From: Escherichia coli
Lineage (GTDB): Bacteria > Pseudomonadota > Gammaproteobacteria > Enterobacterales > Enterobacteriaceae
Length of the DNA: 64,000 bases
Strand: one strand, 5' to 3'
Assembly (NCBI RefSeq): GCF_030384885.1
Contig: NZ_CP128613.1
Numbering within the stretch: position 1 is the first letter of the stretch; each line of letters starts with the position of its first letter. The notes beneath the pieces were generated by a model. It was not told the origin of the DNA and ran no database searches. It saw nothing but the letters and a program-made list of their open reading frames with translations. Made by a program: the position numbers and the translations under genes. Positions 27,290-47,325 of the stretch are shown here, one piece after another.

Positions 27290-28063
27290 ATGAATTCATT
27301 CGAGCGAAGGAATAAGATCATCCAATTAGTGAATGAACAGGGAACCGTGCTTGTTCAGGATCTGGCGGGAGTATTTGCTGCCTCGGAAGCGACAATCCGT
27401 GCCGATTTGCGCTTTCTCGAACAAAAAGGCGTGGTTACGCGCTTTCATGGCGGTGCGGCGAAAATAATGTCCGGTAATAGTGAAACCGAGACCCAGGAAG
27501 TCGGGTTTAAAGAGCGATTTCAGCTCGCCAGCGCACCGAAAAACAGAATAGCGCAGGCGGCAGTCAAAATGATCCACGAAGGGATGACCGTTATTCTCGA
27601 CAGCGGAAGTACGACAATGCTTATCGCCGAAGGTTTAATGACCGCCAAAAATATCACGGTGATTACCAACAGTCTCCCGGCGGCGTTTGCCCTTTCCGAA
27701 AATAAAGACATTACTCTGGTCGTCTGTGGTGGCACGGTCCGCCATAAAACGCGCTCGATGCATGGCTCCATTGCCGAGCGTTCATTGCAGGATATTAATG
27801 CCGATTTAATGTTTGTCGGTGCTGATGGTATTGATGCGGTTAATGGTATTACGACCTTTAATGAAGGTTATTCGATTAGCGGTGCGATGGTCACAGCCGC
27901 TAATAAAGTGATTGCCGTTCTCGATTCATCGAAATTTAACCGTCGCGGTTTTAATCAGGTACTACCAATCGAAAAAATTGACATTATTATTACCGATGAT
28001 GCCGTGTCAGAGGTGGATAAACTGGCATTGCAGAAGACACGGGTGAAATTAATTACGGTGTAG
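27290..28063 (+). CDS. gatR: DeoR-family repressor of the gat operon; intact in this window
   Basis: Track ORF 27284..28063; start at MNSFERRNKIIQLVNEQG. One uninterrupted ORF with no IS sequence inside. Confidence 0.85.
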   Translation: MNSFERRNKIIQLVNEQGTVLVQDLAGVFAASEATIRADLRFLEQKGVVTRFHGGAAKIMSGNSETETQEVGFKERFQLASAPKNRIAQAAVKMIHEGMTVILDSGSTTMLIAEGLMTAKNITVITNSLPAAFALSENKDITLVVCGGTVRHKTRSMHGSIAERSLQDINADLMFVGADGIDAVNGITTFNEGYSISGAMVTAANKVIAVLDSSKFNRRGFNQVLPIEKIDIIITDDAVSEVDKLALQKTRVKLITV

Positions 28064-28144
28064 CATTGTTCTTTATGCCGGATAAGGTGTGTACACCGAA
28101 TCCGGCATCACTGATACTCCCTGAATTAAGAAAGAGAAATTTGA

Positions 28145-29044
28145 TTAACGCAATAATGGACAATCCGGTGGTAATCGACAGCGCAATGCTGCCGGAAGTA
28201 TTTCAATATGAAAGTTTTGTCCACTCAACGGTTCGCCATCAAGATTAAAGGTAATTTCGTGTGGCGCTTGTATATCGAACCACGCCGAAGCACCTTCGAT
28301 AATATTCGGGTTATCTTCGTCAGATTTTAAGGTTGATACGAGAGCCGGAAGAATTTCATCGCCGGTGAAAATGCGCAGTTGCAGTAAGCCGTCGTTAATT
28401 AATGCGTTCGGGCACAATTGCTGACCGCCACCTGCCTGACGGCCGTTACCAATACCAATGACTAGTGCGTCACCTTGCCAGTGAAAGTTTTCACCGCGGA
28501 TTTCACAACGGTCCGGTTGCAGTGTATCCATGCGCATTAAGCCGTGAATGATGTAAGAGACGCCACCCAGCGCTGCTTTTAATTTTTCCGGCGTTTCTGT
28601 GGTAATACGTGTCCCAAACCCACCCGTTGCCATATTAATAAAACAGGTTTGTTTGTTGACCTGCGCCATATCAATCGCAATAGCGTCACCAGCAATTGCT
28701 TGTTTCAGCGCCTTATCCAGTGCCTCAGGAATCCCTACACTGGTGGCAAAATCATTGGCGGTTCCTAATGGCAAAATTCCCAGCGCGGGTATGTCATCCC
28801 CCTCACACTGAATCAACGCCGTAGAAACTTCATTAATGGTGCCATCGCCACCACCGGCAATCACCGTTGCGACGCCCAACTTCCGGGCCTCTTCTACAAA
28901 TCGGGCGGCATCGCCTTTCTCCCAGGTGACCCGCACATGGATCGTCATTCCTTCCTCGCGCAACAGCATAATTGCTTCGCGCAAGGGTTGATTGTCAGTA
29001 CTTTTGCCGTTAAGAATCAGTAAGCTGGCGGGAAATTCTGCCAT
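28145..29044 (-). CDS. yegS: lipid kinase YegS (DAGK_cat family)
   Basis: 299 aa; GGDGT motif ([13 protein letters not shown]). Confidence 0.88.
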
Positions 29045-29457
29045 AATCGTATGCCTTTATGATTGGTCTGTAGATAGTGTAGAGCAGAAAAGAAAAGGTG
29101 GAGTCAGAACAGGATGAAAATCGGAGGATAAAAAGTCAGTTCAAGTATGGGGGATTCAGTGGTTACCACCAGGAGCTTGCAATGGGGACAGTGAATGTTA
29201 ACGGTAGCCACCGATAAATTTCAAAAAAGAACATATACCTAATATTCAACTAAACAGTGGCATCTTCAATATCTTATTCTAAATATATTAAAGCCCTCAT
29301 GGGGGTACCTGGGAAGGGCCTTCATGTTTGTAATTCCTACTTATGTAGGAAATGTTGTACAGAACATTTATTATAATCCTATTCAATTATAATAATCATG
29401 CCATTATTATATTTAAACACCATAGCGTGTCGTTGGTATTTAATGGGGGAAGGTGAG

Positions 29458-29775
29458 ATGAAAAAGACAGCTGCTATATCATTAATTAGTGTTTTTCTTA
29501 TGTCTGGTTGTGCTGTGCATAATGATGAGACAAGTATCGGTAAATTCGGTCTTGCCTATAAAAGTAATATCCAGCGTAAACTCGATAACCAATACTACAC
29601 TGAAGCCGAAGCATCTTTAGCCAGGGGAAGAATATCTGGTGCGGAAAATATAGTGAAAAATGATGCAGCTAATTTCTGTGTTACTCAGGGCAAAAAAATG
29701 CAGATAGTTAACCTGAAGACTGAAGGGGCAGGATTACATGGCGTCGCGCGTCTGACATTCAAATGTGGAGAGTGA
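29458..29775 (+). CDS. yegR: small lipoprotein-like protein YegR
   Basis: Track ORF 29398..29775; start at MKKTAAISLISVFLMSGCAV (lipobox-like). Confidence 0.7.
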   Translation: MKKTAAISLISVFLMSGCAVHNDETSIGKFGLAYKSNIQRKLDNQYYTEAEASLARGRISGAENIVKNDAANFCVTQGKKMQIVNLKTEGAGLHGVARLTFKCGE

Positions 29776-29945
29776 GAATATTTTTTTGTAAGCGTCAAAC
29801 ATGCGCGTTCTGGTTGTGCGTAGCCGGAGCCTGTACGAGCACGATGCCGTTAAGTGAAAGGCATCGTGCTATGAAGGGGGATTCTATCGATGTGGTCAAT
29901 GGAAGACGGTCACCTGGGATCAATCCGTCTCTATGGTTTATGCAT

Positions 29946-30032
29946 AAAAAATAAGCCCGTGTAAGGGAGATTACACAGGCTAAGGAGGTGGTTCCTGGTA
30001 CAGCTAGCATTTTATGGGTTATGTTTTTCAGC
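29946..30032 (-). ncRNA. cyaR: CyaR (RyeE) Hfq-dependent sRNA
   Basis: Reverse complement reads GCTGAAAAACATAACCCATAAAATGCTAGCTGTACCAGGAACCACCTCCTTAGCCTGTGTAATCTCCCTTACACGGGCTTATTTTTT, which matches the 87-nt CyaR sequence as I recall it, including the terminator hairpin and U-tail. Confidence 0.9.
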
Positions 30033-30116
30033 GAAACGGATGATAACCTTAATAAATGCAGCTGTATGTGATCGGTTTCTAAGAATTTTCCATCCGGGAA
30101 AAATAATCGAAATTAA

Positions 30117-31478
30117 TCACTTACCGTGGGGGTTACGCGTGGTTTCCCCGGAGAAATTACGCATCAGCAGCGCGTAATTTAGCTCAAGATCCTGCGGGAC
30201 CGGGATCCACACAGTATAACCATCGCCCGGTGCGACCGGCATTGCTTCGCCTTTGGCGTTTTCCATATGCTCAAGGGTAAAGTTAATGTTCCCTTGCGGC
30301 GTCATCAGCTCAAGGCTGTCGCCAACGGAGAATTTATTTTTCACCGCTACCGCCGCGAGGTCGCCCTTGCGCTCACCGGTAAACTCACCAACAAACTGCT
30401 GGCGGTCAGAAACTGAATAACCGTATTCGTAGTTCTGATAATCGTCGTGAGTATGACGACGCAGGAAACCTTCGGTATAGCCACGATGCGCCAGACCTTC
30501 CAGAGTTTCCAGCAGGCTGGTATCGAATGGTTTTCCCGCAGCTGCGTCATCGATAGCTTTACGGTAAACCTGCGCGGTGCGTGCGCAATAGTAGAAAGAT
30601 TTTGTACGACCTTCGATTTTCAGCGAATGCACGCCCATTTTGGTCAGGCGTTCTACGTGGGCAATGGCGCGCAAATCTTTTGAGTTCATGATGTAAGTGC
30701 CGTGCTCATCTTCAAACGCGGTCATATACTCGCCCGGACGCTGGGCTTCTTCGATCATAAACACTTTGTCGGTTGGCGCGCCGATACCCAGCGTCGGCTC
30801 AACATTTTGCACCGGAATTGGCTCGTACTTGTGTACGATGTTGCCAACGTCATCTTCTTTACCTTCCTGGACGTTGTACTCCCAGCGGCAGGCGTTGGTG
30901 CAGGTGCCCTGGTTCGGATCGCGCTTGTTGATATAACCAGAGAGCAGGCAGCGACCAGAGTAGGCCATGCACAGCGCGCCGTGAACGAAGATTTCGAGTT
31001 CCATATCCGGCACCTGATTGCGGATCTCTTCAATCTCTTCCAGCGACAGTTCGCGAGAGAGGATCACGCGGGTCAGGCCCATTTGCTGCCAGAATTTCAC
31101 CGTCGCCCAGTTCACTGCGTTAGCCTGTACCGAGAGATGGATCGGCATTTCAGGGAAGTGCTCACGCACCAGCATAATCAGCCCTGGATCGGACATAATC
31201 AGCGCATCCGGCCCCATTTCCACCACCGGTTTCAGGTCACGGATAAAGGTTTTCAACTTAGCGTTGTGCGGTGCAATGTTGACCACGACATAAAACTTTT
31301 TCCCCAGCGCGTGGGCTTCATTAATGCCGAGCTGAAGATTTTCGTGGTTGAATTCGTTGTTGCGCACACGCAGGGAGTAACGCGGCTGGCCCGCATAAAC
31401 AGCATCTGCGCCATAAGCGAAAGCGTAACGCATATTTTTCAGCGTTCCCGCCGGGGAAAGGAGTTCCGGTTTAAACAT
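30117..31478 (-). CDS. yegQ: peptidase U32-family protein
   Basis: 453 aa; conserved position next to cyaR. Confidence 0.88.
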   Translation of the reverse strand: MFKPELLSPAGTLKNMRYAFAYGADAVYAGQPRYSLRVRNNEFNHENLQLGINEAHALGKKFYVVVNIAPHNAKLKTFIRDLKPVVEMGPDALIMSDPGLIMLVREHFPEMPIHLSVQANAVNWATVKFWQQMGLTRVILSRELSLEEIEEIRNQVPDMELEIFVHGALCMAYSGRCLLSGYINKRDPNQGTCTNACRWEYNVQEGKEDDVGNIVHKYEPIPVQNVEPTLGIGAPTDKVFMIEEAQRPGEYMTAFEDEHGTYIMNSKDLRAIAHVERLTKMGVHSLKIEGRTKSFYYCARTAQVYRKAIDDAAAGKPFDTSLLETLEGLAHRGYTEGFLRRHTHDDYQNYEYGYSVSDRQQFVGEFTGERKGDLAAVAVKNKFSVGDSLELMTPQGNINFTLEHMENAKGEAMPVAPGDGYTVWIPVPQDLELNYALLMRNFSGETTRNPHGK

Positions 31479-31681
31479 AATTCTCTCGTTCTGATGACAG
31501 GTCAGATCCGCTTCACCTGATGAAGCGGTTGGGGGAGTGCCCCCACTTTAAGGGCGGGCATTGTAGCGCAATCGGTGGGGTTGACTCCAGTGACAATGTT
31601 AAGGGAAAGACTGCGCATTTATTTCGTTTTGACTCCGATAGTCGTCAGGTTCAATTGTTATCAGTTGACCTTAATTTGGTG

Positions 31682-33082
31682 TTAAAGAAAGGGAATATAA
31701 CCCCATAACTTGTTGTGAAGTTCCGGATTGCAGGTAAAAAGCGCCTGAAGTTGCTGACGCTGAGGAGCATTTGGTTGAATGCCCGAAAGATTGAAATTGC
31801 GTTGCCATATCGCGAGCTGTTTACCTGCAAATTCTTCAGTTAGCTTGTGTTGCGATTGCAGAAGAAGAATTAAACAGGCCCATTTGTTCAAGTTATGATA
31901 CAGCCGACAATATGCGCAAGCATGTTTAACTGACGGTGCGTTTTCCAGCAACTTACGTATTTCCTCGAACGTAAGCGGAACTCGACACCATACACAGATG
32001 TTAACCATAAATCGAAGCCCGGAGGCGTCCGGGTTAGCCAGTGTGGTCAGAATAATCCCTTTGACACCACCATCAGGATTGGCTTTCGCAAGAATATACA
32101 TAGCGGCTAATCGCATTGGGAATACATCCTGTGATAATCCCCATTCTGCCAGTTTTAAAATATTGGCATCATGAATGGAGTCCAGCCCGTATAAAGCTGC
32201 CCGGCGCTGTGAGGGAGTATATTCAGTCGAGGTGACAACATGACGCCAGAATTGCACAACATCCATGACGTCATTAAGCATGTTTTTAGCGCGTAGACGG
32301 ATCAACATATTGTTATCCAGCAGTAATGCGCTGTACAACGCCGGAGGAATTTCTATAGCTCGGTCAGTAAGGCTAAACAACGTTGCTTGTCGAATACGCG
32401 GCCAGCGGTCTTTTAACAGACGAGTTAATACCGCTTCGCTTAACGGTAATTGTTGACGCAGCCAGTGGGTGACCGCCAGCATTCGTAAACCTTCGTCGGG
32501 CTGCTTGAGTATTAAAAGCAGCGAAGATTCATCATTAAAGTAGCCATATTCAATCAGCGTTTGTAATACTGCGCGGGAGAGTTTTTTATCAGGGCAAGTA
32601 AGCCAACACGTTAATTGTGGACGGCTATTTTCTGTCAATAAAAATCTAAGTATCTCGTCTACAAATGCACGGTGATCGTAACGCTGGCATTGGAGAAGGT
32701 TACGTATCAAGGGAAGATTAACGGCAAATGCCGCTGCATTCTTATCCTTCTTTAAATGACGTAACGCTATGGTTGCAGCAAGGCGAACCTCTTTTACCCA
32801 GTCATTAGCTGCAAGTAATAATTCTTCTATAGCTGCAACATCCTCTTTTTGTCCCAGACATTGCACGGCCTTTTCTCGTATATATCCATTGTGGTGATGG
32901 GTAAGCTGGCAAAGAACCAGAGTATCGTTGAGATCACAATCATGCGCTATATAATTGCCTGGATCGGCTATCATCGACTGGAGTTGTTGCTGGATAAGAA
33001 ATAATTCACAGTCAACAGAATTATTCATTTCGACGTTAAACAAAACCCTGCGTGTAAATAATGTACGCAATCCTTTGAGCAT
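31682..33082 (-). CDS. hypothetical alpha-helical repeat (HEAT/ARM-like) protein, 466 aa; not a gene I recognise at this locus
   Basis: Complete ORF in a visibly AT-richer stretch than its neighbours; recurring hydrophobic/Ala-rich helical repeats (WVKEVRLAATIALRHL, LRMLAVTHWLRQ, PMRLAAMYILAKA); no signal peptide or TM segment evident. Confidence 0.6.
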   Translation of the reverse strand: MLKGLRTLFTRRVLFNVEMNNSVDCELFLIQQQLQSMIADPGNYIAHDCDLNDTLVLCQLTHHHNGYIREKAVQCLGQKEDVAAIEELLLAANDWVKEVRLAATIALRHLKKDKNAAAFAVNLPLIRNLLQCQRYDHRAFVDEILRFLLTENSRPQLTCWLTCPDKKLSRAVLQTLIEYGYFNDESSLLLILKQPDEGLRMLAVTHWLRQQLPLSEAVLTRLLKDRWPRIRQATLFSLTDRAIEIPPALYSALLLDNNMLIRLRAKNMLNDVMDVVQFWRHVVTSTEYTPSQRRAALYGLDSIHDANILKLAEWGLSQDVFPMRLAAMYILAKANPDGGVKGIILTTLANPDASGLRFMVNICVWCRVPLTFEEIRKLLENAPSVKHACAYCRLYHNLNKWACLILLLQSQHKLTEEFAGKQLAIWQRNFNLSGIQPNAPQRQQLQALFTCNPELHNKLWGYIPFL

Positions 33083-33204
33083 AATTTTCCTTATCAGTTA
33101 TGAGGAGAAAACTCATTTCATGATTAATAATTTCCTGAGGGATAGTAACTCTGTGATGAGAGAAAATAAAGCCGGACGCCAACAACCTACGCCCGGCATC
33201 GTAA

Positions 33205-33537
33205 TTACGTATTGTCTTTCACCGTCTGGCTTGTGCCATTGGCTTTAACGGAGGCAATTCCGGTTTCACGAGATTGCGCGGTGGCGTACATCTGGCTGGA
33301 GCCGATAATTTGATGATTGGCGGCTTTCAGATTGAAATAGAATTTGCCGTTGCTTGCTGTTTTTTTCTCATAGCGTTCTTCTTGTGGGCTGTTGCTACGC
33401 ACTGACGCGATGCCCTTTTCCGCAGAGGCTTTTGAGGTATACAGCTCGCTGGTGAGGATAGTCTCACCATTGCCCGCTTTTAGCACAAACCGGAATTGAT
33501 TATCACTGCTCCTACTGAGTTCAAACCAACCAGCCAT
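33205..33537 (-). CDS. yegP: YegP (UPF0339/DUF1508 tandem-repeat protein)
   Basis: Track ORF 33205..33576; start moved to MAGWFELSRSSDNQFRF (110 aa); internal duplication visible (FRFVLKAGNGE / FYFNLKAANHQ). Confidence 0.85.
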   Translation of the reverse strand: MAGWFELSRSSDNQFRFVLKAGNGETILTSELYTSKASAEKGIASVRSNSPQEERYEKKTASNGKFYFNLKAANHQIIGSSQMYATAQSRETGIASVKANGTSQTVKDNT

Positions 33538-33716
33538 AATGACTCCTTGATTGAAATTGCGTATCGAAAACAGCATCTAAAAGGACTGTTTGCCGATTAA
33601 AGTATGAGCGATTTTCAGGTGCTTGCCAGGGCGGAGAGATAATGTCAGATAGCCGACAATGCGCGGGATAATGCTGCCGGATGTGGCGTGAATGCCTTCT
33701 CCGGCAGGTAAAAATG

Positions 33717-34439
33717 TTAAACGATGCGGCAGGCGTCGGCTTCCCAGCGATAACCGACACCGTAGACGGCGCGGATAAAAGACTGCTCTTCGTCCAGAGC
33801 TTCCAGCTTGCGACGCAGGTTTTTAATGTGGCTGTCGATGGTGCGGTCAGTTACTACGCGGTAGTCGTCATAAAGATGATTGAGCAATTGCTCGCGGGAG
33901 AACACTTTTCCTGGTTCATGAGAGAGTGTTTTCAGCAGACGAAATTCCGCAGGCGTCAGGTCAAGCATTTTACCGCGCCATGAAGCCTGAAAACGACCTT
34001 CGTCGATAATCAACGGGCTTTCAGCATCCTGTTGCTGCAACTCACGCTGCGGTTTGCAACGGCGCAAAATGGTTTTGACGCGTGCTACCACTTCCCGTGG
34101 GCTGTACGGCTTGCAGATATAATCATCTGCGCCAATCTCCAGCCCGAGCAGGCGGTCGATCTCTTCGATTTTTGCTGTCACCATCACGATCGGAATGTCA
34201 GAAAAACGACGAATCTCCCGACACAACGTCAGGCCATCGGTGCCGGGGAGCATCAGATCCAACAGGATCAGATCCGGTGGTGTCTGGCGCACATATGGCA
34301 GTACCTGATCGCCGTGGCTGATAAGCGTCGGCGCATAGCTCGCAGCACGCAGATAATCAATAAGCAACTGCCCCAGCTTCGGTTCATCTTCCACGATCAA
34401 AATACGTGGCGTGTTTTCGTCGATTGGTAACTCGGTCAT
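33717..34439 (-). CDS. baeR: OmpR-family response regulator BaeR
   Basis: 240 aa; receiver domain plus winged-helix; overlaps baeS by 4 nt. Confidence 0.93.
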
Positions 34440-35839
34440 ACTTCTCTCTGTAAATCCCGTTCCAGCGGTAACTCTACTGTAATGCTTACCCCGCCAAAAG
34501 GCGAATGAGCGGCAACAATGCGACCATTATGTGCTTCAACAATGTTAAGACAAATCGCCAGCCCCAGGCCGGAACCGCCGCTGGCACGGTTGCGGGAACC
34601 TTCGGTGCGATAAAAACGCTCAAACAATTTTTGCAGTTGATCGTCACTAACGCCCGGTGCACTGTCGGCAAAGGTCAGGCGCACCGTTTTGTCATGTTGC
34701 TCGGCAGAGATATGCAGGCTGCCGCCGCTGTCGGTATAGCGCAGGCTGTTTTCCAGTAAGTTATTGAACAACTGCATTAAACGATCGCGATCGCCAAATA
34801 CGGTAATGCTGTCTGGCAGGGAAAATTTCAGTTTCAGCCCGCGGCTGGCGAAACGCTCACGAAATGCGCCACCCGCGACTTCCAGTAGCGGGATCAGATC
34901 CACCGACGATTTCTGGTAGGCGAGAGCGCCTTCATCAGACATCGACAATTGATGAAGATCATCCACCAGTTTGGTCAGTGTACCGACCTCTGCCTGTAAA
35001 GAAGCCACCGTCTCCGGCGTGAATTTACGCACGCCATCCTGAATAGCTTCCAGTTCGCCGCGCAGTACCGCTAAAGGCGTGCGCAGCTCGTGGGAGATAT
35101 CGGCCATAAAATCGCGGCGCATCTGTTGGTTTTTCTCCAGCGTGCTGGCGAGCTGGTTGAAGTCTTGCGCCAGTTTGCCCAATTCATCTTCACTGGTGGG
35201 CGTCACGCGAGTAGTGAAATCGCCCGCTGCCAGTTTGTGTGTACCGTCCACCAGTCGTTTGACCGGAGCCAGCAAACCGCGCGCCAGTGGGAATGTCGCC
35301 AGCGCCGCTAACAAGGTAGATAAAGCGACAATCAGCCAACTGGTTTGCCTCTGTTGTCTGTCAAAATTGATGTCGGTATTGCGGGTCAGTCGTTCAACAG
35401 GGGAGGCGATCACCGCACCCACTTCCGCCCCATTGACCATAATGGGCCGCCGTGTGCCGTCTGGTGGAATCGGTGCTCGCGGGCCAACCAGCACTTTGTT
35501 GTTTTGATCAACCACCCAGAATTGCGTGCGCCAACCGTGTGGCGGCATACCGGGGCCGGGCTTATCTTCGTTGTTATCATGCTCCAGCGAACGTAGGATC
35601 TGAAATACAAAGCGATCGTTATTACGCAGGAAGCGCCAGTTCCCGTGCTGGGCGTACTGCTCACCAAGCGCATCGCCGAGCATTTGCAGCCGTTGTTCAT
35701 TTCCATGCTTGATGTAATCGATAAAGCCGCGCTCAAAACTGATACGTACCGCCCAGTGCATCGTGATCAATAAGACAATGCAGGTGGCGAAAATCGCCAG
35801 AAACAGTTTGCCGGTAATACCGGGTCGCCAGAATTTCAT
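34436..35839 (-). CDS. baeS: sensor histidine kinase BaeS
   Basis: 467 aa; H-box HELRTP and HATPase motifs. Confidence 0.93.
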
Positions 35840-37251
35840 TGCGCGCTCCTTTTTCGCCGCGAAATAGCGACATTTTGATGCGTATCGTTCGGCACTCTGG
35901 CAAAGATAAACGCCGGAAGGGCGATGATAAACGCCATGCTAAGCCAGGTGTACATAAAGACGGTTTGTGTGGTGCTGCTGTCTACACTGACATGCTGTGA
36001 ACCAAAAAGCCCCAGCAACAGCCCGGCGATGGTGACGCCGATACTCATCGATAATTGCATAATCATCGACAGCAGGCTGTTGCCGCTGCTCGCCAGATTG
36101 TCTGGTAGATCTTTCAGCGTCAGGGTGTTCATGGAGGAGAAACGTGTCGAGTTGACCATTCCTTGTAAAAACAGGACGAACGGCAAAACGTAGTACCAGC
36201 CCAGCAGCGCGGTAGTCATAAACAGCAGGGTGACCAGCGACAGGCCCAGCGTGGTCGCCACCAGTACCCGACGATAACCAAAGCGATTCACTACCTGCAC
36301 TACAACTCGCTTCATTCCCATGCTGCCGAGCACCATCGGGATCATCATCAATCCGGCATGAAACGGCGAGAAACCGAGGCCAATCTGTAAGAAAACCGGT
36401 GTCATAAAGGGCAACATGCCACTGCCGATACGTCCGGCAAAGCTCCCCGCCAGGCCCAGCGAAAAGGTACGAGTGCGGAACAGTTTCAGACTGAACAGGG
36501 CGCGGTTGTTATTTCTGGCGTGCAGCAGATAAAGCACCAGTGCCACCACGCCAATCGCTGCCAGTCCGGCAATCGCCAGCGGCGATAAACCTGTACCTTT
36601 ACTGCCATCCAGCGCCAGCGTTAATACCGCCATGCCGACTGCCAGCAATAAAAAACCGGAGAGATCGAAACGCCGCGTCTGCATGGTGTAGTTTGGCATT
36701 AACATCAGCGTGGCGATCGCACCGATAATCCCTACCGGAATGTTGATCAAAAAGATCCAGTGCCAGGACGCGTATTCCACCAGCAGGCCGCCGAGCGCCG
36801 GACCAAGCAGCGGACCGACTTGCCCGGGCAGCGTAACAAAGGTCATCGCCGCCATATATTGCTCGCGCGGTACAATTTTCATCACCGTCAACCTGCCAAC
36901 CGGCACCATCATCGCGCCGCCAACGCCCTGTAACGCGCGTGCCAGCAACAGTTCGTTTAGCGTGCCGGAAAGCGCGCAAAACAGTGAACCGAGAGTAAAC
37001 AGTACGATGGCGGTAAAGAAAATATTGCGCACGCCGACTTTGTCCGCCAGCCAGCCGCTGGCGGGCAGCATCACCGCCACGGTCAGTACATAAGAGACAA
37101 TGACCATGTGCATATGCAACGGACTTTCCCCAAGGCTTTGCGCCATTGAGGGAAGGGCGGTGTTTACGATGGTGGTGTCCAGCGACTGCATAAAGAAGCC
37201 GAAAGCCACAATCCACAATTGCCAGCGGGTGCTGTCGGGAAGATCTGTCAT
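35836..37251 (-). CDS. mdtD: MFS transporter MdtD
   Basis: 471-aa polytopic membrane protein; operon position. Confidence 0.92.
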
Positions 37252-40200
37252 TTACTCAGTTACCGTTTGTTTAGGTTTACGCGAAAAACGCAGCCGCAGA
37301 CGGTCAAAAAAGAGATACACCACCGGCGTGGTATACAGCGTCAGGAGCTGGCTCATTACCAGACCGCCGACAATGGTGATCCCCAGGGGTTGGCGCAGCT
37401 CCGAGCCGTCACCGCCCGACAATACCAGCGGCAGCGCACCAAACAGCGCCGCCAGGGTAGTCATCATAATCGGGCGAAAACGCAGCAGACAGGCCTGGAA
37501 AATAGCTTCCTGCGGCGTCAGGTTACCGTGCCGTTGGGCTTCGAGCGCAAAATCGACCATCATAATGGCGTTTTTCTTCACGATGCCGATTAATAGCATG
37601 ATCCCTATCAGGGCGATTAGGCTGAACGGGGCATTGAACAGCTCCAGCGCCAACAGCGCTCCAACGCCCGCCGAGGGCAGGGTGGAGAGAATCGTCAGTG
37701 GATGCACGTAACTCTCGTAAAGGATACCCAGCACGATATACACCGTGGCGATGGCTGCGATAATCAGGATCACCTGCGAGTTCATCGTCTCCTGGAATAC
37801 CTGCGCTGTTCCGGCAAAACTGCCGCGCACCGTCGAAGGCACACCTAGCTGGGTCATTGCGCGGTCAATCGCCGCACTGGCGTCCGAGAGCGATTTTCCG
37901 GTCGGCAAGTTGAACGAGATGGTCGAGGCCGCCGATAATCCCTGATGATTCACCGACAGCGGGGCATTCGCCGGTTGCCATTTAGCGAAATATGACAGAG
38001 GGATCGCTTTTCCTTCGTTATTAATGACAAACATTTTTTCCAGTGCACTGATGTCCTGGGTATAGCGCGGATCCACTTCCATCACCACTTTATACTGGTT
38101 CATGGGCTGGTAAATGGTCGAGATTTGCCGCTGACCGAAGGCGTTATTCAACAGGCTGTTGGCGGCCTGCACGTCGATTCCCAGCCGTGCCATGGTATCG
38201 CGGTCGTAAACCAGATTCATCTCCGCGCCGTTATCCTGCTGGTCGGAATTCACGTCCGCCAGTTCCGGCAATGTCGCCAGTTTTTTGCGGATTTTCGGCT
38301 CCCATTCGCGCAGCGCCGCCAGGTCGTCGGAGAGCAACGTATACTGGTAACTGGCGTTCGACTGACGTCCGCCAACGCGAATATCCTGTACCGCCATCAG
38401 GAACAGATTCGCCCCCGGTTCTTTCGCCAGCTTCACCCGCAGACGGTCGATAATTTGCTGCGCCGTTTCGCTGCGCTCGTCGCGCGGTTTGAGAGTGATA
38501 AACATCATCCCACTGTTCACCCGCGAGCCACCGGTAAAGCCGGTGACATTATCCACTGCCGGATCGTCACGGATAATTTTCATAAAATCCTGCAACTTAC
38601 CACGCATCGCCTGAAACGAAATACTCTGATCCGCCTGTATCCCGCCCATCAACACGCCGGTGTCCTGCTCCGGGAAGAAGGTTTTCGGGATCGAGATATA
38701 CAGCCAGATATTCAAAGCAATGGTGCCAAGCAGCACCACGCCCACCAGACGGGTATGATTAAGCACCCATTTCAGTGACTTGCCGTAGCTTTGTTGCAGG
38801 GCTACCAACATGCGACCAAAACCACGCAGACGCTTTTGCTCGCGCGGCTTGCTGGCTTTTAGCATCCAGCCGCACATCATCGGCGTTAACGTCAGGGAAA
38901 CCAGCAACGAAATACCAATGGCGACAGAAAGCGTCACGGCAAATTCGCGTAACAGTCGGCCCGGCAATCCGCCCATCAACAGCAGCGGCAGGAACACCGC
39001 CACCAGTGACAGACTCATCGACAGTACCGTAAAGCCGACTTCGCGAGTACCTTGCAGCGCGGCCTGTAGCGGTTTCATCCCCGCTTCCAGATGACGGGCA
39101 ATGTTTTCCAGCACTACGATGGCGTCATCCACCACGAAACCAGTAGCGATGGTGAGCGCCATTAACGAAAGATTATTGAGACTGAAACCGCACAGGTACA
39201 TCGCCGCAAACGTACCAATCAGCGAAACCGGCACCGCAACGGCGGGAATAATTGTGGCGCGACCCGAGCGCAGGAATAAAAAGACCACCAGAATCACCAG
39301 TGCCACCGAGATAATCAGCGTTTGCTCGACTTCTTCCAGCGAGGCGCAAATGGTGGGGGAGCGATCCTGGGCAATTTGCAGATCAATCGCCGCCGGAATG
39401 GTCTCCTGCAACTCCGGTAATTTTGCCCGGATGCTGTCAACCGTCTGGATAATATTGGCTTCCGGCAGCTTGCGGATCATCAGCAAAATAGCCGGTTTGG
39501 CGTTGGTCATCCCGGCGTTGCGCACATCCTGCACTGAGTCGGTCACCGTCGCTACATCGCCCAGACGAACCGCGCCGCCGTTGTTGTAATGAATAATCAG
39601 CGGCTGATATTCAGCGGCGGTTTTCAGTTCATCGTTAGTCTGGATCTGCCAGCGGTGAGTGCCATCTTCCAGCGCCCCCTGCGGTTTACGCACGTTGGCA
39701 TTGCTGATGGCAGTGCGTACGTCGTCCAGCGACACGCCCTGATTAAATAGCGCCTGCGGGTTCAGCCCAACGCGCACAGCGGGCAACGAGCTGCCGCCGA
39801 CATCGACATCACCGACACCGTCGATTTGCGAAATTGTCGGAGCCAGTTGCGTCGAGGCGAAATCGTACAGTTCACCCTGCGAATAAGTATCGGATGTCAG
39901 CGTCAGGATCATAATTGGCGCATCCGAAGGATTCGCTTTGCGATAGGTCGGACGGCTTGGCATTCCGCTGGGCAGCAAACTTTGCGCGGCGTTGATCGCC
40001 GCCTGCACATCGCGCGCCGCGCCGTTGATATCCCGGTCAAAATCAAACTGCAAAATAATACGCGTGCTGCCAAGCGAACTGCTGGAGGTCATTTCACTGA
40101 CCCCGGCGATGCGCCCAAGTGAGCGCTCCAGCGGCGTGGCGACGGAAGACGCCATTGTCTCCGGCGATGCACCGGGCAGCGAGGCGCTGACCATGATCAC

Positions 40201-40329
40201 CGGAAAATCGACCTGCGGCAGCGGGGCGACCGGCAGCATACGGAAGCCCAGTATGCCGCACAGGGTAATGGCAACCGACAGTAAAATCGTCGCCACCGGG
40301 CGGTAAATGAAGAGGGCAAAAAACTTCAC
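37252..40329 (-). CDS. mdtC: RND multidrug efflux transporter subunit MdtC
   Basis: 1025 aa; AcrB-like. Confidence 0.95.
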
Positions 40330-43300
40330 TTACGCCTCCTCTTCATGACGAGCAAAGCGGCTTTTGGTCCACAATGCCAGGCGGTCGAACAGCAAATAAA
40401 TCACCGGCGTGGTAAACAGCGTCAGCACCTGGCTGACTATCAGACCGCCGACCATGCCGATACCTAACGGACGACGCAGTTCCGCGCCGACCCCGGTACT
40501 TAACATCAGCGGCAACGCGCCAAGCAGAGCCGCCAGAGTGGTCATCAGGATCGGACGAAAACGCAACAGACAGGCCTGGTAAATTGCATCGCGCGGCGAC
40601 ATGCCTTGCTCGCGCTCGGCAGCCAGCGCGAAGTCGATCATCATGATGGCGTTTTTCTTCACAATACCGATCAGCAAAATAATGCCGATGATGGCGATCA
40701 CATCCAGCTCACTTCCGGCAATCATTAGCGCCAGCAGTGCGCCAACACCTGCCGTTGGCAACGTCGAGAGAATGGTGATCGGGTGGATAAAGCTCTCGTA
40801 CAGAATGCCGAGCACGATATACATCGCCACCACCGCTGCGACAATCAGCCAGACAGTGCTGCCCAATGCCGACTGGAAGGCGAGGGTGCTGCCCTGGAAT
40901 TGTGTGGTGATATCCACCGGCAGATTCAGCGTCTTTTCGGTGTCCATAATCGCCTGCACCGCATCACCGAGAGAATAGTTATCCGGCACGTTAAAGGAGA
41001 TGGTCGTTACCGGGAACTGATCCAGATGGTTGATGGAGAGCGGCGCAAAACGCTGCTCAATTTTGGCAATTGAGCTTAGCGGCACCACGCCACCGTCGCT
41101 GCTGGTCAGGCGGATAGTATCCAGCGCCGCGAGGCCTGGGGTATTTTCGGTATTGTGCTCCAGCACCACGCGATACTGGTTAGCCTGAGTATAAATGGTG
41201 GAAATCAGTCGCTGACCAAACGCGTTGTACAGGGCGTTATCGACGTCCGCCATGCTGATCCCCAGACGGCTGGCGCTGTCGCGATCAACGTTGACATACG
41301 CCACCAGCCCTTGGTCCTGCCAGTCGCTGGAGACATCAGAAAGCTGTGGCAGCTGCTGGAGTTTTTCCACGAGTTGCGGCACCCAGGTGCTGAGCGCATC
41401 CAGCGATGTGGCCTGCAAGGTAAACTGGTACTGGGTGCGGCTGACCTGAGTATCGATAGTCAGATCCTGCGTTGGTTGAAGGAAGAGATCGACACCCGGC
41501 ACTTTATCTACTGCCGTTTGCAAACGGGCGATGACTTTTTGCACCCGATCATCACGTTCATCCAACGGTTTGAGGTTGATCTGTAAACGCGCACTGTTCA
41601 GCGACGGGTTAGTACCATCAACGCCAACAAATGAGGTCAGGCTTTGCACCGCCGGGTCCTGCAAAATCACATCAGCGACCTGACGTTGCCGCTGGGCCAT
41701 ATTGGCAAAGGAGCTGGATTGCGGTGCCTGCAAGGTGCCCTGAATAATGCCGTTGTCCTGTACCGGGAAGAAACCTTTCGGAATGAACACCCATAAGAGA
41801 ACGCTAAGCAGCAGCGTGCTGAGCGCTACGCTTAAAGTCAGCCACGGATGATTCAGCACTTTCGCCAGTCCACGACCATAGGCGGCAATTATCCTGTCGA
41901 ACATTTTTTCCGAGGCCCGGGAGAAGCGGTTCTGTTTACGCAGCGACTCCTGGCTGAGCATCCGCGCGCACATCATCGGTGTCAGGGTCAGCGACACCAC
42001 GGCTGAGATCAAAATCGCTACCGCCAGGGTAATGGCAAATTCGCGGAACAGTCGCCCGACGATATCGCCCATAAACAGCAGCGGGATCAGCACTGCAATC
42101 AGAGAGAAAGTCAGTGAGATAATGGTAAAACCGATTTCACCTGCGCCCTTGAGCGCCGCTGCCAGTGGTTTTTCGCCTTTTTCGATATAGCGGGAAATGT
42201 TTTCGATCACCACGATGGCGTCGTCGACAACGAATCCGGTGGCGATGGTTAACGCCATCAGCGTCAGGTTATTGATCGAAAAATCGAGAAACACCATGAC
42301 CGCGAAGGTGCCGATTAACGACAGCGGCACGGCGACGCCAGGAATGATGGTCGCCGGAATATTGCGCAGAAACAGGTAGATAATCATGACTACCAGCGCG
42401 ATAGCCATCATCAGTTCAAACTGGGTATCGTCGACTGATGCGCGGATATTGGTAGTGCGATCGGAAAGTACCGTCACTTTTACCGATTTCGGCAGACTCT
42501 CGGTAAGCTGTGGCAGCATCTGCCGAATGCTGTCGGCGGTAGAGATAATGTTAGCACCGGGCTGGCGCTGAACATTCATCACAATGGCCTGTTCTTTGTT
42601 CGCCCATGCGCCAAGCCAATTGTTTTCTGCGCCTTGTTCAACGGTTGCGACATCACCAAGACGAATCGGCGCGCCGTTCTGGTAGGCGATAATCAACTGG
42701 CGATATTCATCCGCAGATTGCATCTGGTCGTTCGCGGAAAGCGTGACCGCGCGGGAAGGGCCGTCGAGGCTACCTTTAGCCGAGTTAACGTTAGCGCCGG
42801 TAATGGCGGTGCGCACGGTTTCGCTGGTCAGGCCGAGGGCGGCAATCGCCTGGGCGTTAAGTTTGACGCGAACAGCCGGACGCTGACCGCCGGAAAGCGT
42901 CACCAGCCCGACGCCGGAAATCTGCGAGATCTTCTGCGCGACGCGGGTTTCCACCATATCTTCCACTTGGGTCATCGGCATGGCGGTTGAGGTGACGGCA
43001 AGCGTCATGATTGGCGGATCTGCCGGGTTCACTTTGCTGTAAACCGGCGGGTTAGGCAGATCGCTCGGCAACAAGTTGGTCGCAGCGTTAATCGCGGCCT
43101 GCACTTCCTGCTCGGCGACATCCAGCGGTAATGTTAGCTGGAACTGCAAAGTGATAACTGACGCGCCGCCGGAACTTTGCGACGACATCTGTTTCAGGCC
43201 GGACATCTGCCCGAACTGGCGTTCGAGCGGTGCGGTAACGGCAGAGGTCATGACATCCGGGCTGGCACCTGGGTAGAGGGTGACCACCTGAATGGTTGGA

Positions 43301-43452
43301 TAGTCCACTTCCGGCAGCGCCGAAACGGGCAGGGCACGATAACCGATAATCCCGGCGAGTAAGATCGCCACCATCAGCAGCGTAGTGGCGACAGGACGCA
43401 TAATAAACAGGCGCGACGGGCCGCCTGTGCTGCTCGGGGGTAACACCTGCAT
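40330..43452 (-). CDS. mdtB: RND multidrug efflux transporter subunit MdtB
   Basis: 1040 aa; AcrB-like; directly abuts mdtC. Confidence 0.95.
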
Positions 43453-44699
43453 CAGGAGCGTGCTCCTTTTTTCGCGTATTCGCGGCTGGTGGCTTTCTCT
43501 TCCGAAGTGGTGGCGCTTTGAGCTTCAACCACTTCCACTTTCGCCCCTTCGGTCAGACGATCAATGCCATCCGTCACTACGCGGTCGCCTGCAGAAATAC
43601 CTGCGCGGATCACCACTTTCTGACTGTCCTGAATGCCCGGCGTCACCAGATGTTTGCTGACCTTGTTTTCGCTATTCAGCACCCAGACAAAATGGCCTTC
43701 GTTGCCCATTTGCAGGGCGGCGGTGGGGATCACCACGGCGTTTTGTTCGGTGTCGACTAACATGCGCGCGTTAACAAACTGATTGGGAAACAGCGCATCA
43801 TCCTGATTATTAAAGCGTGCTTTCACTTTAATCGTACCGGTAGTGGCATCGATTTGGTTATCGAGACTTAACAGCGTGCCTTCACTTAATTTCTTCGAGT
43901 TGGTGCGATCCCAGGCTTCAACAACCAGCGGTTTTCCGGCTTTTTGCGCCTGTACTACGGTAGCGATATCGCTTTCCGGCAGGGTAAAGAGCAAATCGAT
44001 AGGATGCGTCTGGGTGATCACCACAATCCCGGTGGTATCACCACTGGAGATTTGGTTACCAACATCAACCTGCTTGAGACCAACGCGACCATCGACTGGT
44101 GCGGTGATGCGGCTCCAGTCGAGTTGCAGCTGTGCGCTGGCGACGCTCGCTTCATCAGCCTTAATGGTACCTTCGGTTTCACTGACCAGCGCCTGTTGGG
44201 CATCCAATTCCTGACGGGAGACGAGATTGGTTTTTGCCAGTTGCTGATAACGCGCTAAATCACGGCGGGCGTTGGCTAGTGTGGCTTTATCTTTTGCCAG
44301 TTGCCCCTGAGCTTGTGCTAATGCAACTTTGAACTGGCTGGGGTCAATTTCTGCCAGTAAATCGCCTGCTTTGACCTGCTGACCCTCCTGGAAATGTAAT
44401 GCCATCAGTTGACCATCTACGCGACTGCGCACCGTAACGGTGTTAGCAGCGGTAATCGTACCAAGCCCGGTGAGGTAACGCGGAACCGCCTGTTCCACGG
44501 CAGTTGCTGCCTGAACCGGGGCCAATGGGCCGGAACGCATACCACGGCGGCCACCGGCTGGCGACTGCTGTGCTTGCTTCGTCGCACCTGGCGCTGCGCT
44601 CTGGGATTCATTGCGGCCTTGCCAGAACCAGAAAGCGGCGATGGCGGCGATAACCACCACGATTACGATTACCCAACGGGATTTATAACTGCCTTTCAT
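43452..44699 (-). CDS. mdtA: membrane fusion protein (periplasmic adaptor) MdtA
   Basis: Track ORF 43452..44846; start moved to [16 protein letters not shown] (415 aa). Confidence 0.9.
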
Positions 44700-44744
44700 C
44701 GTTAAGAGTTTCTCTTCCTGAAACGTTTCGCGGAATGATACTAG

Positions 44745-44763
44745 TGTAGCCAGCCAATAAGGG
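44745..44763 (-). promoter_or_regulatory. putative BaeR box upstream of mdtA
   Basis: Minus strand reads TTTTTCTCCCTTATTGGCT, close to the BaeR consensus as I recall it (TTTTTCTCCATGATTGGCT). Confidence 0.5.
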
Positions 44764-44932
44764 AGAAAAATGGAGGAATTATGAAACACTGTCGGGAATC
44801 GTCTGAATGACGGGCACTTTTGCGAGCACGCATCCAGTAATAACACAGGAAACTATTTTATCTACGCGTTAGCGATAGACTGCATTCAGGGCAAAAGGAG
44901 GTAGGCCGACGATTTCAGCGGGACGCTGAAAC

Positions 44933-45073
44933 GGGAAAGCCCCTCCCGAGGAAGGGGCCTTAAATAAGGAAAGGGTCATGATGAAGATACTCATCATCGT
45001 GGTGCTCTTAGTCGTTAGCTACCCAGCTTACTAAGACTACCAGGGCGGGGAAAACCCCGCTCTACCCTCACTC
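44933..45073 (-). ncRNA. sibA: Sib antisense antitoxin RNA, unit 1 (approximate ends)
   Basis: Ends placed by analogy to the K-12 sibA/ibsA geometry (sib fully overlaps ibs on the opposite strand); not mapped from sequence. Confidence 0.45.
44978..45034 (+). CDS. ibsA: type I toxin Ibs, 18-aa hydrophobic peptide (MMKILIIVVLLVVSYPAY)
   Basis: ATGATGAAG... ORF preceded by an AGGAAAGGG RBS; matches the Ibs family. Confidence 0.75.
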   Translation: MMKILIIVVLLVVSYPAY

Positions 45074-45260
45074 CTGAAAATATGCCTTCACGGTCAGAAT
45101 GTCAATCCGCAGGCTTTGCAGTCTGCGATCCTGCCAGCAAATATTCTTTGCGAGTCGTTACGCAATAATCACAGATGAAACTATTTTATCTACGCGTTAG
45201 CGATAGACTGCATTCAGGGCGAAAGGAGGTAAGCCGATGATTTCAGCGGGACGCTGAAAC

Positions 45261-45401
45261 GGGAAAGCCCCTCCCGAGGAAGGGGCCTTAAATAAGGAAA
45301 GGGTCATGATGAAGTGGATCATCATCGTGGTGCTCTTAGTCATTAGCTTACCGGCTTACTAAGACTACCAGGGCGGGGGAAACCCCGCTCAACCCTCACT
45401 C
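45261..45401 (-). ncRNA. sibB: Sib antisense antitoxin RNA, unit 2 (approximate ends)
   Basis: As unit 1. Confidence 0.45.
45306..45362 (+). CDS. ibsB: type I toxin Ibs copy 2 (MMKWIIIVVLLVISLPAY)
   Basis: Second repeat unit; same architecture. Confidence 0.75.
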   Translation: MMKWIIIVVLLVISLPAY

Positions 45402-45588
45402 CTGAAAGTATGCCTTCACAATCAGATTGTCAATCCGCAGGCTTTGTAGTCTGCGATCCTGCCAGCAAATATTCTTTGCGAGACGTTACGCAATAATCAC
45501 ATGTGAAACTATTTTATCTGCAAGTTAGCGATAGACTGCTTGCATGGCGAAAGGAGGTAGGCCGCCGATTTCAGCGGGACGCTGAAAC

Positions 45589-45729
45589 GGGAAAGCCCCT
45601 TCCGAGGAAGGGGCCTTAAATAAGGAAAGGGTCATGATGAAGCTACTCATCATCGTGGTGCTCTTAGTTATTAGCTGGCCAGCTTACTAAGACTACCAGG
45701 GCGGGGGAAACCCCGCTCTACCCTCACTC
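45589..45729 (-). ncRNA. Sib antisense antitoxin RNA, unit 3 (approximate ends)
   Basis: As unit 1. Confidence 0.4.
45634..45690 (+). CDS. type I toxin Ibs copy 3 (MMKLLIIVVLLVISWPAY)
   Basis: Third repeat unit; same architecture. Confidence 0.7.
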   Translation: MMKLLIIVVLLVISWPAY

Positions 45730-45907
45730 CTGAAGTTATGTTACTCCACCCTTATTGTCAATCTGTAAGTCCACGTTCTTGCGGGGCGAATAGCAAAACC
45801 CTCTGCGCTTATGGGCCGAATTCTGAAAGTTGCTTTGCCTGCTCTTATTTCATTATTGCAGTCGGTATGATACCGGACCTCAATAATTCTCTAAGAAAGG
45901 ATTTCTT

Positions 45908-46567
45908 ATGAGCGAACAAATCACGTTTGCCACCAGCGATTTTGCCAGTAACCCGGAACCACGTTGCCCCTGCATTTTGCTGTTGGATGTTTCTGGTTCG
46001 ATGAGTGGTAGACCTATTAATGAACTTAACGCCGGATTGGTTACCTTTCGCGATGAGCTGCTTGCCGATTCGCTGGCCTTAAAAAGAGTGGAACTCGGTA
46101 TTGTGACGTTCGGCCCGGTGCATGTGGAACAACCATTTACCAGCGCCGCTAATTTTTTCCCGCCCATCCTGTTTGCCCAGGGAGATACACCAATGGGGGC
46201 CGCCATTACCAAAGCCCTGAATATGGTTGAGGAGCGCAAACGTGAGTATCGCGCCAATGGTATTTCCTATTATCGTCCGTGGATTTTCATGATCACTGAT
46301 GGTGCACCAACCGATGAGTGGCAGGCTGCTGCCAACAAGGTGTTTCAGGGGGAAGAAGATAAGAAGTTTGCCTTCTTTTCCATCGGTGTTCAGGGGGCGG
46401 ATATGAAGACGCTGGCCCAAATCAGCGTTCGTCAGCCTTTGCCTCTTCAAGGATTACAATTCCGCGAACTGTTTAGCTGGTTATCCAGTTCGCTGCGTTC
46501 GGTTTCCCGCTCCACGCCGGGAACGGAAGTTGTACTGGAAGCGCCAAAAGGCTGGACGTCAGTGTGA
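45908..46567 (+). CDS. yegL: von Willebrand factor A (vWA) domain protein
   Basis: 219 aa; MIDAS-type DxSxS motif ([11 protein letters not shown]); 4-nt overlap with yegK. Confidence 0.88.
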
Positions 46568-47325
46568 GCTGGCGTCTGGTCTATGCATCAGCCGTTGGAA
46601 CGTCGCACATCAGCGCTGACTTGTCTTGCCAGGATGCCTGCCAGATGCAGGTTGCCTGGCTAGAAGACCAGCAGCCATTATTGTCGGTATTTGTCGCTGA
46701 TGGCGCAGGCAGCGTCTCGCAGGGAGGCGAAGGTGCGAAGCTTGCCGTCAATGAAGCGATGGCTTATATATCGCAAAAAGTGCAGGGTGGGGAATTGGAG
46801 CTTAATGATGTCCTCGCCACGGATATTGTACTGACTATTCGTCAGCGACTTTTTGCCGAGGCAGAGGCCAAAGAATTAGCGGTTCGCGATTTTGCCTGCA
46901 CATTTCTGGGACTGATTTCATCGCCTAACGGCACATTGATTATGCAGATTGGCGATGGTGGCGTGGTCGTAGATTTGGGGCACGGTTTGCAATTGCCGCT
47001 CACGCCGATGGTGGGTGAATATGCCAACATGACGCATTTCATTACCGATGAAGATGCCGTTTCCAGACTGGAAATTTTCACCAGCACTGAGCGTGCGCAT
47101 AGAGTTGCAGCATTTACGGATGGTATTCAGAGACTGGCGTTAAATATGCTGGATAATTCTCCGCATGTGCCTTTCTTTACCCCGTTTTTCAATGGACTGG
47201 CGTCAGCAACGCAGGAACAACTCGATTTATTACCTGAATTGTTAAAGCAGTTTTTGTCCAGCCCAGCGGTAAACGAGCGTACCGATGATGATAAAACGTT
47301 AGCACTGGCTATGTGGACAGAATAA
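46564..47325 (+). CDS. yegK: PP2C-family Ser/Thr protein phosphatase
   Basis: 253 aa; Asp-rich metal-binding patches ([16 protein letters not shown]); coupled to yegL. Confidence 0.85.

Follow-up and report, generated by a model that had tools for sequence, protein, structure and literature searches.

An intact mdtABCD-baeSR efflux operon with a conserved BaeR box in a strain of Escherichia cryptic clade I

The mdtABCD-baeSR operon is an established efflux system of Escherichia coli that is controlled by the BaeSR pair in response to envelope stress (PMC4462101, PMC12046405). Of these two reviews, the first covers the operon, its regulators and the MdtB2C stoichiometry, and the second summarizes the regulon. 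A first-pass annotation of a 64,000-nucleotide stretch of E. coli contig NZ_CP128613.1 (the window) assigned a group of six genes to this system, which raises the question of whether the locus holds a complete copy with its own BaeR-controlled promoter, or a copy that has changed or decayed relative to that of K-12. The region is almost certainly the mdtABCD-baeSR operon on the chromosome of a strain of Escherichia cryptic clade I and the gene-for-gene orthologue of the K-12 operon. The copy is ordinary and intact; the system is well studied and already known, and nothing new about the operon was found here.

The list of open reading frames (ORFs) contains six long minus-strand ORFs between 33717 and 44846. 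That these are six co-directional genes, as had been proposed, was borne out by this list and by RefSeq, whose annotation of NZ_CP027579.1 (100% identical) gives mdtA-mdtB-mdtC-mdtD-baeS-baeR at the locus, in this order and on a single strand. A megablast search with positions 33000-45500 against complete E. coli genomes returned this 100% match, E. coli 2013C-4282 (NZ_CP027579.1), and more than 5,400 further genomes, mostly at 90-95% identity. An alignment to K-12 mdtABCD-baeSR, which the first-pass annotation had named as the way to check its assignment, was run. From mdtA to baeR, the window and K-12 both have 10,983 nt, which align without a single indel at 94.4% nucleotide identity. None of the six ORFs differs in length from its K-12 counterpart or contains an internal stop, and the six proteins differ from those of K-12 by 2-16 substitutions each (96.6-99.5% amino-acid identity). 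All six products score above the curated NCBIfam cut-offs with full-length alignments; five of the models are at equivalog level, and that of MdtD is at subfamily level. The neighbourhood is syntenic with K-12 as well, with yegL and the sib-ibs units on one side and yegP on the other. The NCBIfam scores, the colinearity with K-12 and a promoter identical to that of K-12 (see below) thus support the assignment to the known envelope-stress-induced efflux system of the resistance-nodulation-division (RND) type, and, judged from sequence, every feature by which we assessed membership of the mdtABCD-baeSR system is present.

Over its whole length, the window shows 100% identity to E. coli 2013C-4282. 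This strain, isolated from human stool, appears in a list of complete genomes of Escherichia cryptic clade I, a lineage that is sister to E. coli sensu stricto (PMC10100065). A divergence of about 5% from K-12 could be specific to the locus if the operon lay on an imported island. This was rejected, since identity to K-12 is 94-96% in every alignable part of the 64-kb window. The divergence of about 5% across the alignable window is instead explained by the strain belonging to cryptic clade I.

The residues expected of the individual proteins were found in place. For mdtA, a longer GTG-initiated ORF reaching to 44846 was rejected in favour of the ATG at 44699, which gives a protein of 415 residues, the K-12 length; from this ATG, the MdtA/MuxA family model aligns protein residue 4 to profile position 3. 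Both permease subunits, of the RND (HAE-1) type, contain the proton-relay residues: the Asp-Asp pair of transmembrane helix (TM) 4, D410/D411 (VVDDAIV) in MdtB and D401/D402 in MdtC, and the lysine motif GIVKKNAI of TM10, which starts at residue 929 in MdtB and at residue 915 in MdtC. MdtB matches the structure of MdtB in PDB entry 9lyq across its full length. BaeS, as a kinase of the HisKA/HATPase class, has the H-box HELRTPL with His250, the G2 box (GSGLGL) and, as a loose pattern match, an N-box-like NSLRY at residue 364, and its sensor domain (residues 35-166) matches the related BaeS periplasmic sensor domain of PDB entry 5wvm. The receiver Asp61 of BaeR is present, and BaeR aligns over its full length to PDB entry 4b09 (BaeR; E = 5e-158). 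MdtC carries the substitution R328C relative to K-12 (codon 328, 39346-39348), just before TM2. The same substitution is found in the closest relative, 2020CK-00188, and is absent from K-12, EDL933, K56-43-un and M160133; its occurrence in a second strain makes it a real sub-lineage variant rather than a lesion.

We compared the operon genes of the window, K-12, EDL933 and the urinary isolate K56-43-un in six pairwise comparisons. The ratio of nonsynonymous to synonymous divergence (dN/dS) was 0.012-0.079 for every operon gene and every pair; on these ratios, all six genes are under strong purifying selection. These data bear directly on the idea that the operon is present but decaying, as a silent and non-functional remnant in a divergent lineage. 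The lineage is indeed about 5% diverged from K-12, the neighbouring pphC is a pseudogene, and R328C in MdtC is unusual. However, six ORFs of K-12 length without internal stops, dN/dS values of 0.01-0.05, intact catalytic residues and an invariant promoter all argue against decay, and R328C, being shared with a second strain, is a lineage variant and not a lesion. We therefore regard a remnant as very improbable and return to the intact operon.

All five junctions within the operon either abut or overlap (Table 1). The first-pass annotation had described abutting genes or overlaps of 1 to 4 nt at mdtA/mdtB, mdtC/mdtD, mdtD/baeS and baeS/baeR; all four descriptions are right, and the list was incomplete in that mdtB and mdtC abut too. 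Overlaps of the ATGA type are common in bacteria and occur in four other gene pairs of the window, and the tight junctions, together with the BaeR box described below, could accordingly be sequence coincidences without regulatory meaning. Yet junctions of 0 nt or less were found at 5/5 positions in the operon against only 4/31 of the other co-directional adjacent pairs in the window (hypergeometric P = 3.3e-4). The abutting and overlapping stop and start codons probably couple the translation of successive genes, which would help to coordinate subunit production.

The published E. coli BaeR consensus is 5'-TTTTTCTCCATDATTGGC-3' (Nishino 2005, quoted in PMC3915751, PMC3799227). A near-consensus BaeR box upstream of mdtA had been claimed for the window, and the sequence TTTTTCTCCCTTATTGGC, which spans the positions from 71 to 54 nt before the ATG of mdtA and deviates from the consensus at one position, confirms it. 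The span originally given for the system, 33717-44763, is correct at its lower end, where 33717 is the end of baeR, but not at its upper end: 44763 falls in the middle of the BaeR box, and the span should extend to at least 44770, or to 44778 if the upstream half-site is included. TTTTTCTCCCTTATTGGC is the sole match with two or fewer mismatches in the window, and even at up to three mismatches only 0.21 chance matches are expected. A second BaeR-like match with three mismatches, ATGTTCTCCATTAATGGC at 53920-53937, was rejected; it lies inside dgcE, on the strand opposite to the gene, and is at chance level.

The sequence around the box can be read as a pair of tandem half-sites, TTCCTCCA (44778-44771) and TTTCTCCC (44768-44761), with CTCC cores exactly 10 bp apart. 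A CTCCA match to the CTNCA element noted in PMC3799227 is present at 44775-44771, immediately upstream of the box, and TCTNCANAA is matched with two mismatches at 44766-44758. The arrangement of the half-sites would correspond to the direct-repeat geometry expected for binding of an OmpR/PhoB-type regulator. Just downstream of the box, three overlapping hexamers are candidates for the -10 element, and the box would therefore overlap a weak -35 region, an arrangement that may be the one typical of promoters that depend on an activator.

We compared the 91 nt that directly precede the ATG of mdtA, including the box and the -10 candidates, in six genomes (the window, a second probable clade I strain, K-12, O157 and two other E. 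coli isolates). This sequence is identical in all of them, alongside a synonymous divergence of 0.07-0.29 in mdtA. The low dN/dS together with this invariant stretch, retained despite the synonymous divergence of mdtA, indicates that the genes and the promoter are both under purifying selection. In K-12, chromatin immunoprecipitation with exonuclease digestion (ChIP-exo) detected BaeR bound upstream of mdtA (PMC7657598). Coincidence is hard to reconcile with a box that matches at 17/18 positions where chance would give so few matches, that is invariant over lineages differing by up to 29% at synonymous sites, and that is occupied by BaeR in K-12 on the identical sequence (PMC7657598). Its probability is close to nil, and in our view the sequence conservation and the ChIP-exo result from K-12 have, in effect, already refuted it. 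Because the 91-nt promoter is identical to that studied in K-12 by ChIP-exo (PMC7657598) and the junctions are all 0 nt or less, phosphorylated BaeR (BaeR~P) would be expected to bind at the box in the window strain and to activate the operon as a polycistronic unit.

No result contradicts the identification of the locus as the mdtABCD-baeSR operon, but several outcomes of the motif and structure scans count against it. A sigma-70 consensus scan of 44600-45000 called no promoter at the box, and its only candidate, TTCAGA-18-CATAAT at 44807-44778, lies upstream of the box and occurs at a near-chance rate. The missing sigma-70 call fits an activator-dependent promoter, but it is uninformative. 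Both CpxAR and BaeSR act on spy, acrD and, reportedly, mdtA (PMC4462101, PMC12046405). No CpxR site of the form GTAAA-N5-GTAAA with up to two mismatches was found in 44700-44960, so the reported Cpx input was not located by this pattern; the nearest matches fall within the Sib repeats, and the 69 matches in the whole window hardly exceed the 51.5 expected by chance. At the other end of the operon, a terminator scan and RNA folding downstream of baeR found no canonical intrinsic terminator. RNA folding gave a hairpin that begins 10 nt past the baeR stop and has no U-tract, and the z-score for the whole baeR-yegP intergenic region was -1.1. The transcript may end at this hairpin, although the hairpin is not a canonical intrinsic terminator. 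An Rfam search found no RNA family within the operon.

A mechanism for the window strain can be proposed from the work on K-12, using the two reviews (PMC4462101, PMC12046405) and the ChIP-exo study (PMC7657598). BaeS would sense compounds that damage the envelope, among them indole, flavonoids, metals and some antibiotics, autophosphorylate at His250 and pass the phosphate to Asp61 of BaeR. BaeR~P would then bind the direct-repeat box overlapping the weak -35 region and activate one long transcript running from mdtA to baeR. The expected outcome would be more of the MdtA adaptor, of the heterotrimeric RND pump MdtB2C, which would act with TolC encoded elsewhere, and of the major facilitator superfamily (MFS) exporter MdtD/IceT, and the level of BaeSR would be raised as well, giving positive autoregulation. 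For K-12, the MdtB2C heterotrimer is known to export drugs and bile salts together with MdtA and TolC (PMC4462101), and the same assembly and efflux activity may be predicted for the window strain by analogy. The gene tolC is not in the window.

The sensor gene differs from the rest of the operon in its divergence. The first ~600 nt at the 5' end of baeS (window 35100-35700, minus strand) are 84-85% identical to K-12 and EDL933 and 92-97% identical to K56-43-un. Among 5,423 E. coli records, identity to this segment was at least 99% in 40, 95-99% in 178, 90-95% in 1064 and 80-90% in 4141. The synonymous divergence (dS) of baeS from K-12 is about 0.55-0.58, against 0.17-0.27 for its neighbours, and the dN/dS of baeS is ~0.03; residues 26-184 of BaeS, comprising TM1, the periplasmic domain and TM2, differ from K-12 by nine amino-acid changes. 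The segment resembles a mosaic produced by old recombination, or else a polymorphism with two alleles, and this pattern is not specific to the window strain. A more far-reaching view would be that it belongs to one of two deeply diverged E. coli allele classes, about 15% apart in nucleotide sequence, which are maintained by selection and differ in signal specificity; if this were true, strains would differ in what triggers their Bae envelope-stress and efflux response. We consider this unlikely. Equally doubtful is the related proposal that BaeS of the window is a functionally distinct sensor class, arisen by old recombination or balancing selection, with a signal specificity unlike that of K-12 BaeS. 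The contrast in identity between K-12/EDL933 and K56-43-un, the baeS dS of 0.58 against the lower values of its neighbours, the separate identity bands and the nine changes in the sensor region all speak for such a class. However, the baeS dN/dS of 0.03 is as low as that of the neighbouring genes, the changes are mostly conservative (L/M, S/T, K/R, F/L), and the pattern fits neutral mosaicism from recombination. The mosaic is thus an only mildly useful by-product of the analysis, of interest for recombination history or differences in signal response.

Table 1. Genes, junctions, regulatory elements and neighbouring features of the mdtABCD-baeSR region (window positions)
Feature	Position	Strand	Description
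mdtA	43452-44699	minus	Membrane fusion (periplasmic adaptor) protein, 415 aa; NF008589, 723.5 bits (cut-off 391); 98.8% aa identity to K-12
mdtB	40330-43452	minus	RND permease subunit, 1040 aa; NF007798, 2243.5 bits (cut-off 1584)
mdtC	37252-40329	minus	RND permease subunit, 1025 aa, GTG start; NF007905, 2207.2 bits (cut-off 1774)
mdtD (iceT)	35836-37251	minus	DHA2-type MFS transporter, 471 aa; NF007799 (subfamily-level), 966.4 bits (cut-off 426)
baeS	34436-35839	minus	Sensor histidine kinase, 467 aa; NF007837, 932.6 bits (cut-off 603)
baeR	33717-34439	minus	OmpR/PhoB-family response regulator, 240 aa; NF007982, 451 bits (cut-off 380)
mdtA/mdtB junction			TGATG; -1 nt (1-nt overlap); read from sequence
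mdtB/mdtC junction			TAAGTG; 0 nt (abut); read from sequence
mdtC/mdtD junction			TAAATG; 0 nt (abut); read from sequence
mdtD/baeS junction			ATGA; -4 nt (4-nt overlap); read from sequence
baeS/baeR junction			ATGA; -4 nt (4-nt overlap); read from sequence
BaeR box	44753-44770	minus	TTTTTCTCCCTTATTGGC; agrees with the Nishino 2005 consensus at 17/18 positions; same sequence upstream of mdtA in K-12
Tandem half-sites (inferred)	44761-44778	minus	TTCCTCCA and TTTCTCCC
Candidate -10 hexamers	44735-44748	minus	TACACT, TAGTAT, TATCAT; overlapping; stretch invariant in six genomes
Hairpin downstream of baeR	33674-33707	minus	From RNA fold; no U-tract
Sib antitoxin RNAs	44963-45105, 45291-45433, 45619-45761	minus
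Ibs toxin ORFs	44978-45034, 45306-45362, 45634-45690	plus
HEAT-repeat protein gene	31682-33082	minus	466 aa; in the 1.6-kb insertion absent from K-12

Between mdtA and yegL, three tandem 328-bp Sib/Ibs units occupy window positions 44838-45761. EDL933 likewise has three such units and K-12 two. With its end at 44838, the repeat comes within about 70 nt of the BaeR box on the upstream side. Further along, pphC (46564-47325), the gene of a PP2C-type Ser/Thr phosphatase, has an internal stop and carries a pseudogene annotation, and both of its partners, yegL and the kinase gene yegI, are intact.

On the other side of the operon, the window has a 1.6-kb insertion relative to K-12 (31570-33170) between yegP and yegQ/trhP, right after the yegP terminator hairpin. 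No direct repeats were found flanking this insertion. The HEAT-repeat protein gene that it contains is full-length in only 39/5,426 complete genomes, and the only family matches of its product are Pfam HEAT_2 and a weak match to PADLOC HEAT-ARM_XIII. The possibility that this gene is the published clade-I-specific marker was rejected: the marker is 1368 bp long and has PipB2 domains, while the gene found here is 1401 bp long and has HEAT_2. Beyond the insertion, gatR and gatC are intact and lack the IS3E insertion (window 27290-30117), unlike in K-12, and the ~550-bp K-12 ogrK/PR-X prophage remnant beside CyaR (29949-30034) is absent from the window. At the left end, a gene for a DUF4132 protein (1-2623) runs off the window. 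Nothing in the equivalent interval of K-12 (yehF/yehH/yehI area) matches the first ~2.4 kb, and the left-end region is therefore structurally unlike K-12.

Taken together, a human-stool isolate of clade I retains the complete BaeSR-controlled MdtABC/MdtD module; its promoter is invariant and its genes are under strong purifying selection. Since such a strain retains the whole module, this circuit of intrinsic resistance and envelope stress belongs to the conserved Escherichia core. Beyond the correct annotation of the locus, the significance of this result is small.

Compared with K-12 mdtABCD-baeSR (b2074-b2079), the operon of the window is alike in its six genes, their order and lengths, all five junctions, the BaeR box and the flanking genes. 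It differs by a nucleotide divergence of 5.6% overall and 11% in baeS, by having three Sib/Ibs units upstream where K-12 has two, and by the HEAT-repeat gene inserted downstream of yegP.

MuxABC-OpmB of Pseudomonas aeruginosa is another of the closest known systems. It appears in the names of the NCBIfam models (MdtA/MuxA and MdtB/MuxB), and, like the system of the window, it combines one adaptor with two RND permease subunits that differ from each other. The Mux operon has its own outer-membrane channel gene and is not known to contain an in-operon MFS transporter or a BaeSR pair. The system described here, in contrast, lacks a gene for such a channel and would depend on TolC, whose gene lies elsewhere. 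AcrAB-TolC of E. coli has the RND fold and the proton-relay motifs in common with MdtBC, and MdtB matches AcrB chains at E ~1e-118. However, AcrB is a homotrimer under the control of AcrR, MarA, SoxS and Rob, whereas MdtBC forms a B2C heterotrimer under BaeSR (PMC4462101). The regulators themselves are paralogous to CpxA and CpxR (157 and 163 bits for BaeS and BaeR, respectively), but both score below the CpxA and CpxR cut-offs, and no CpxR consensus site was detected in the 260 nt upstream of mdtA.

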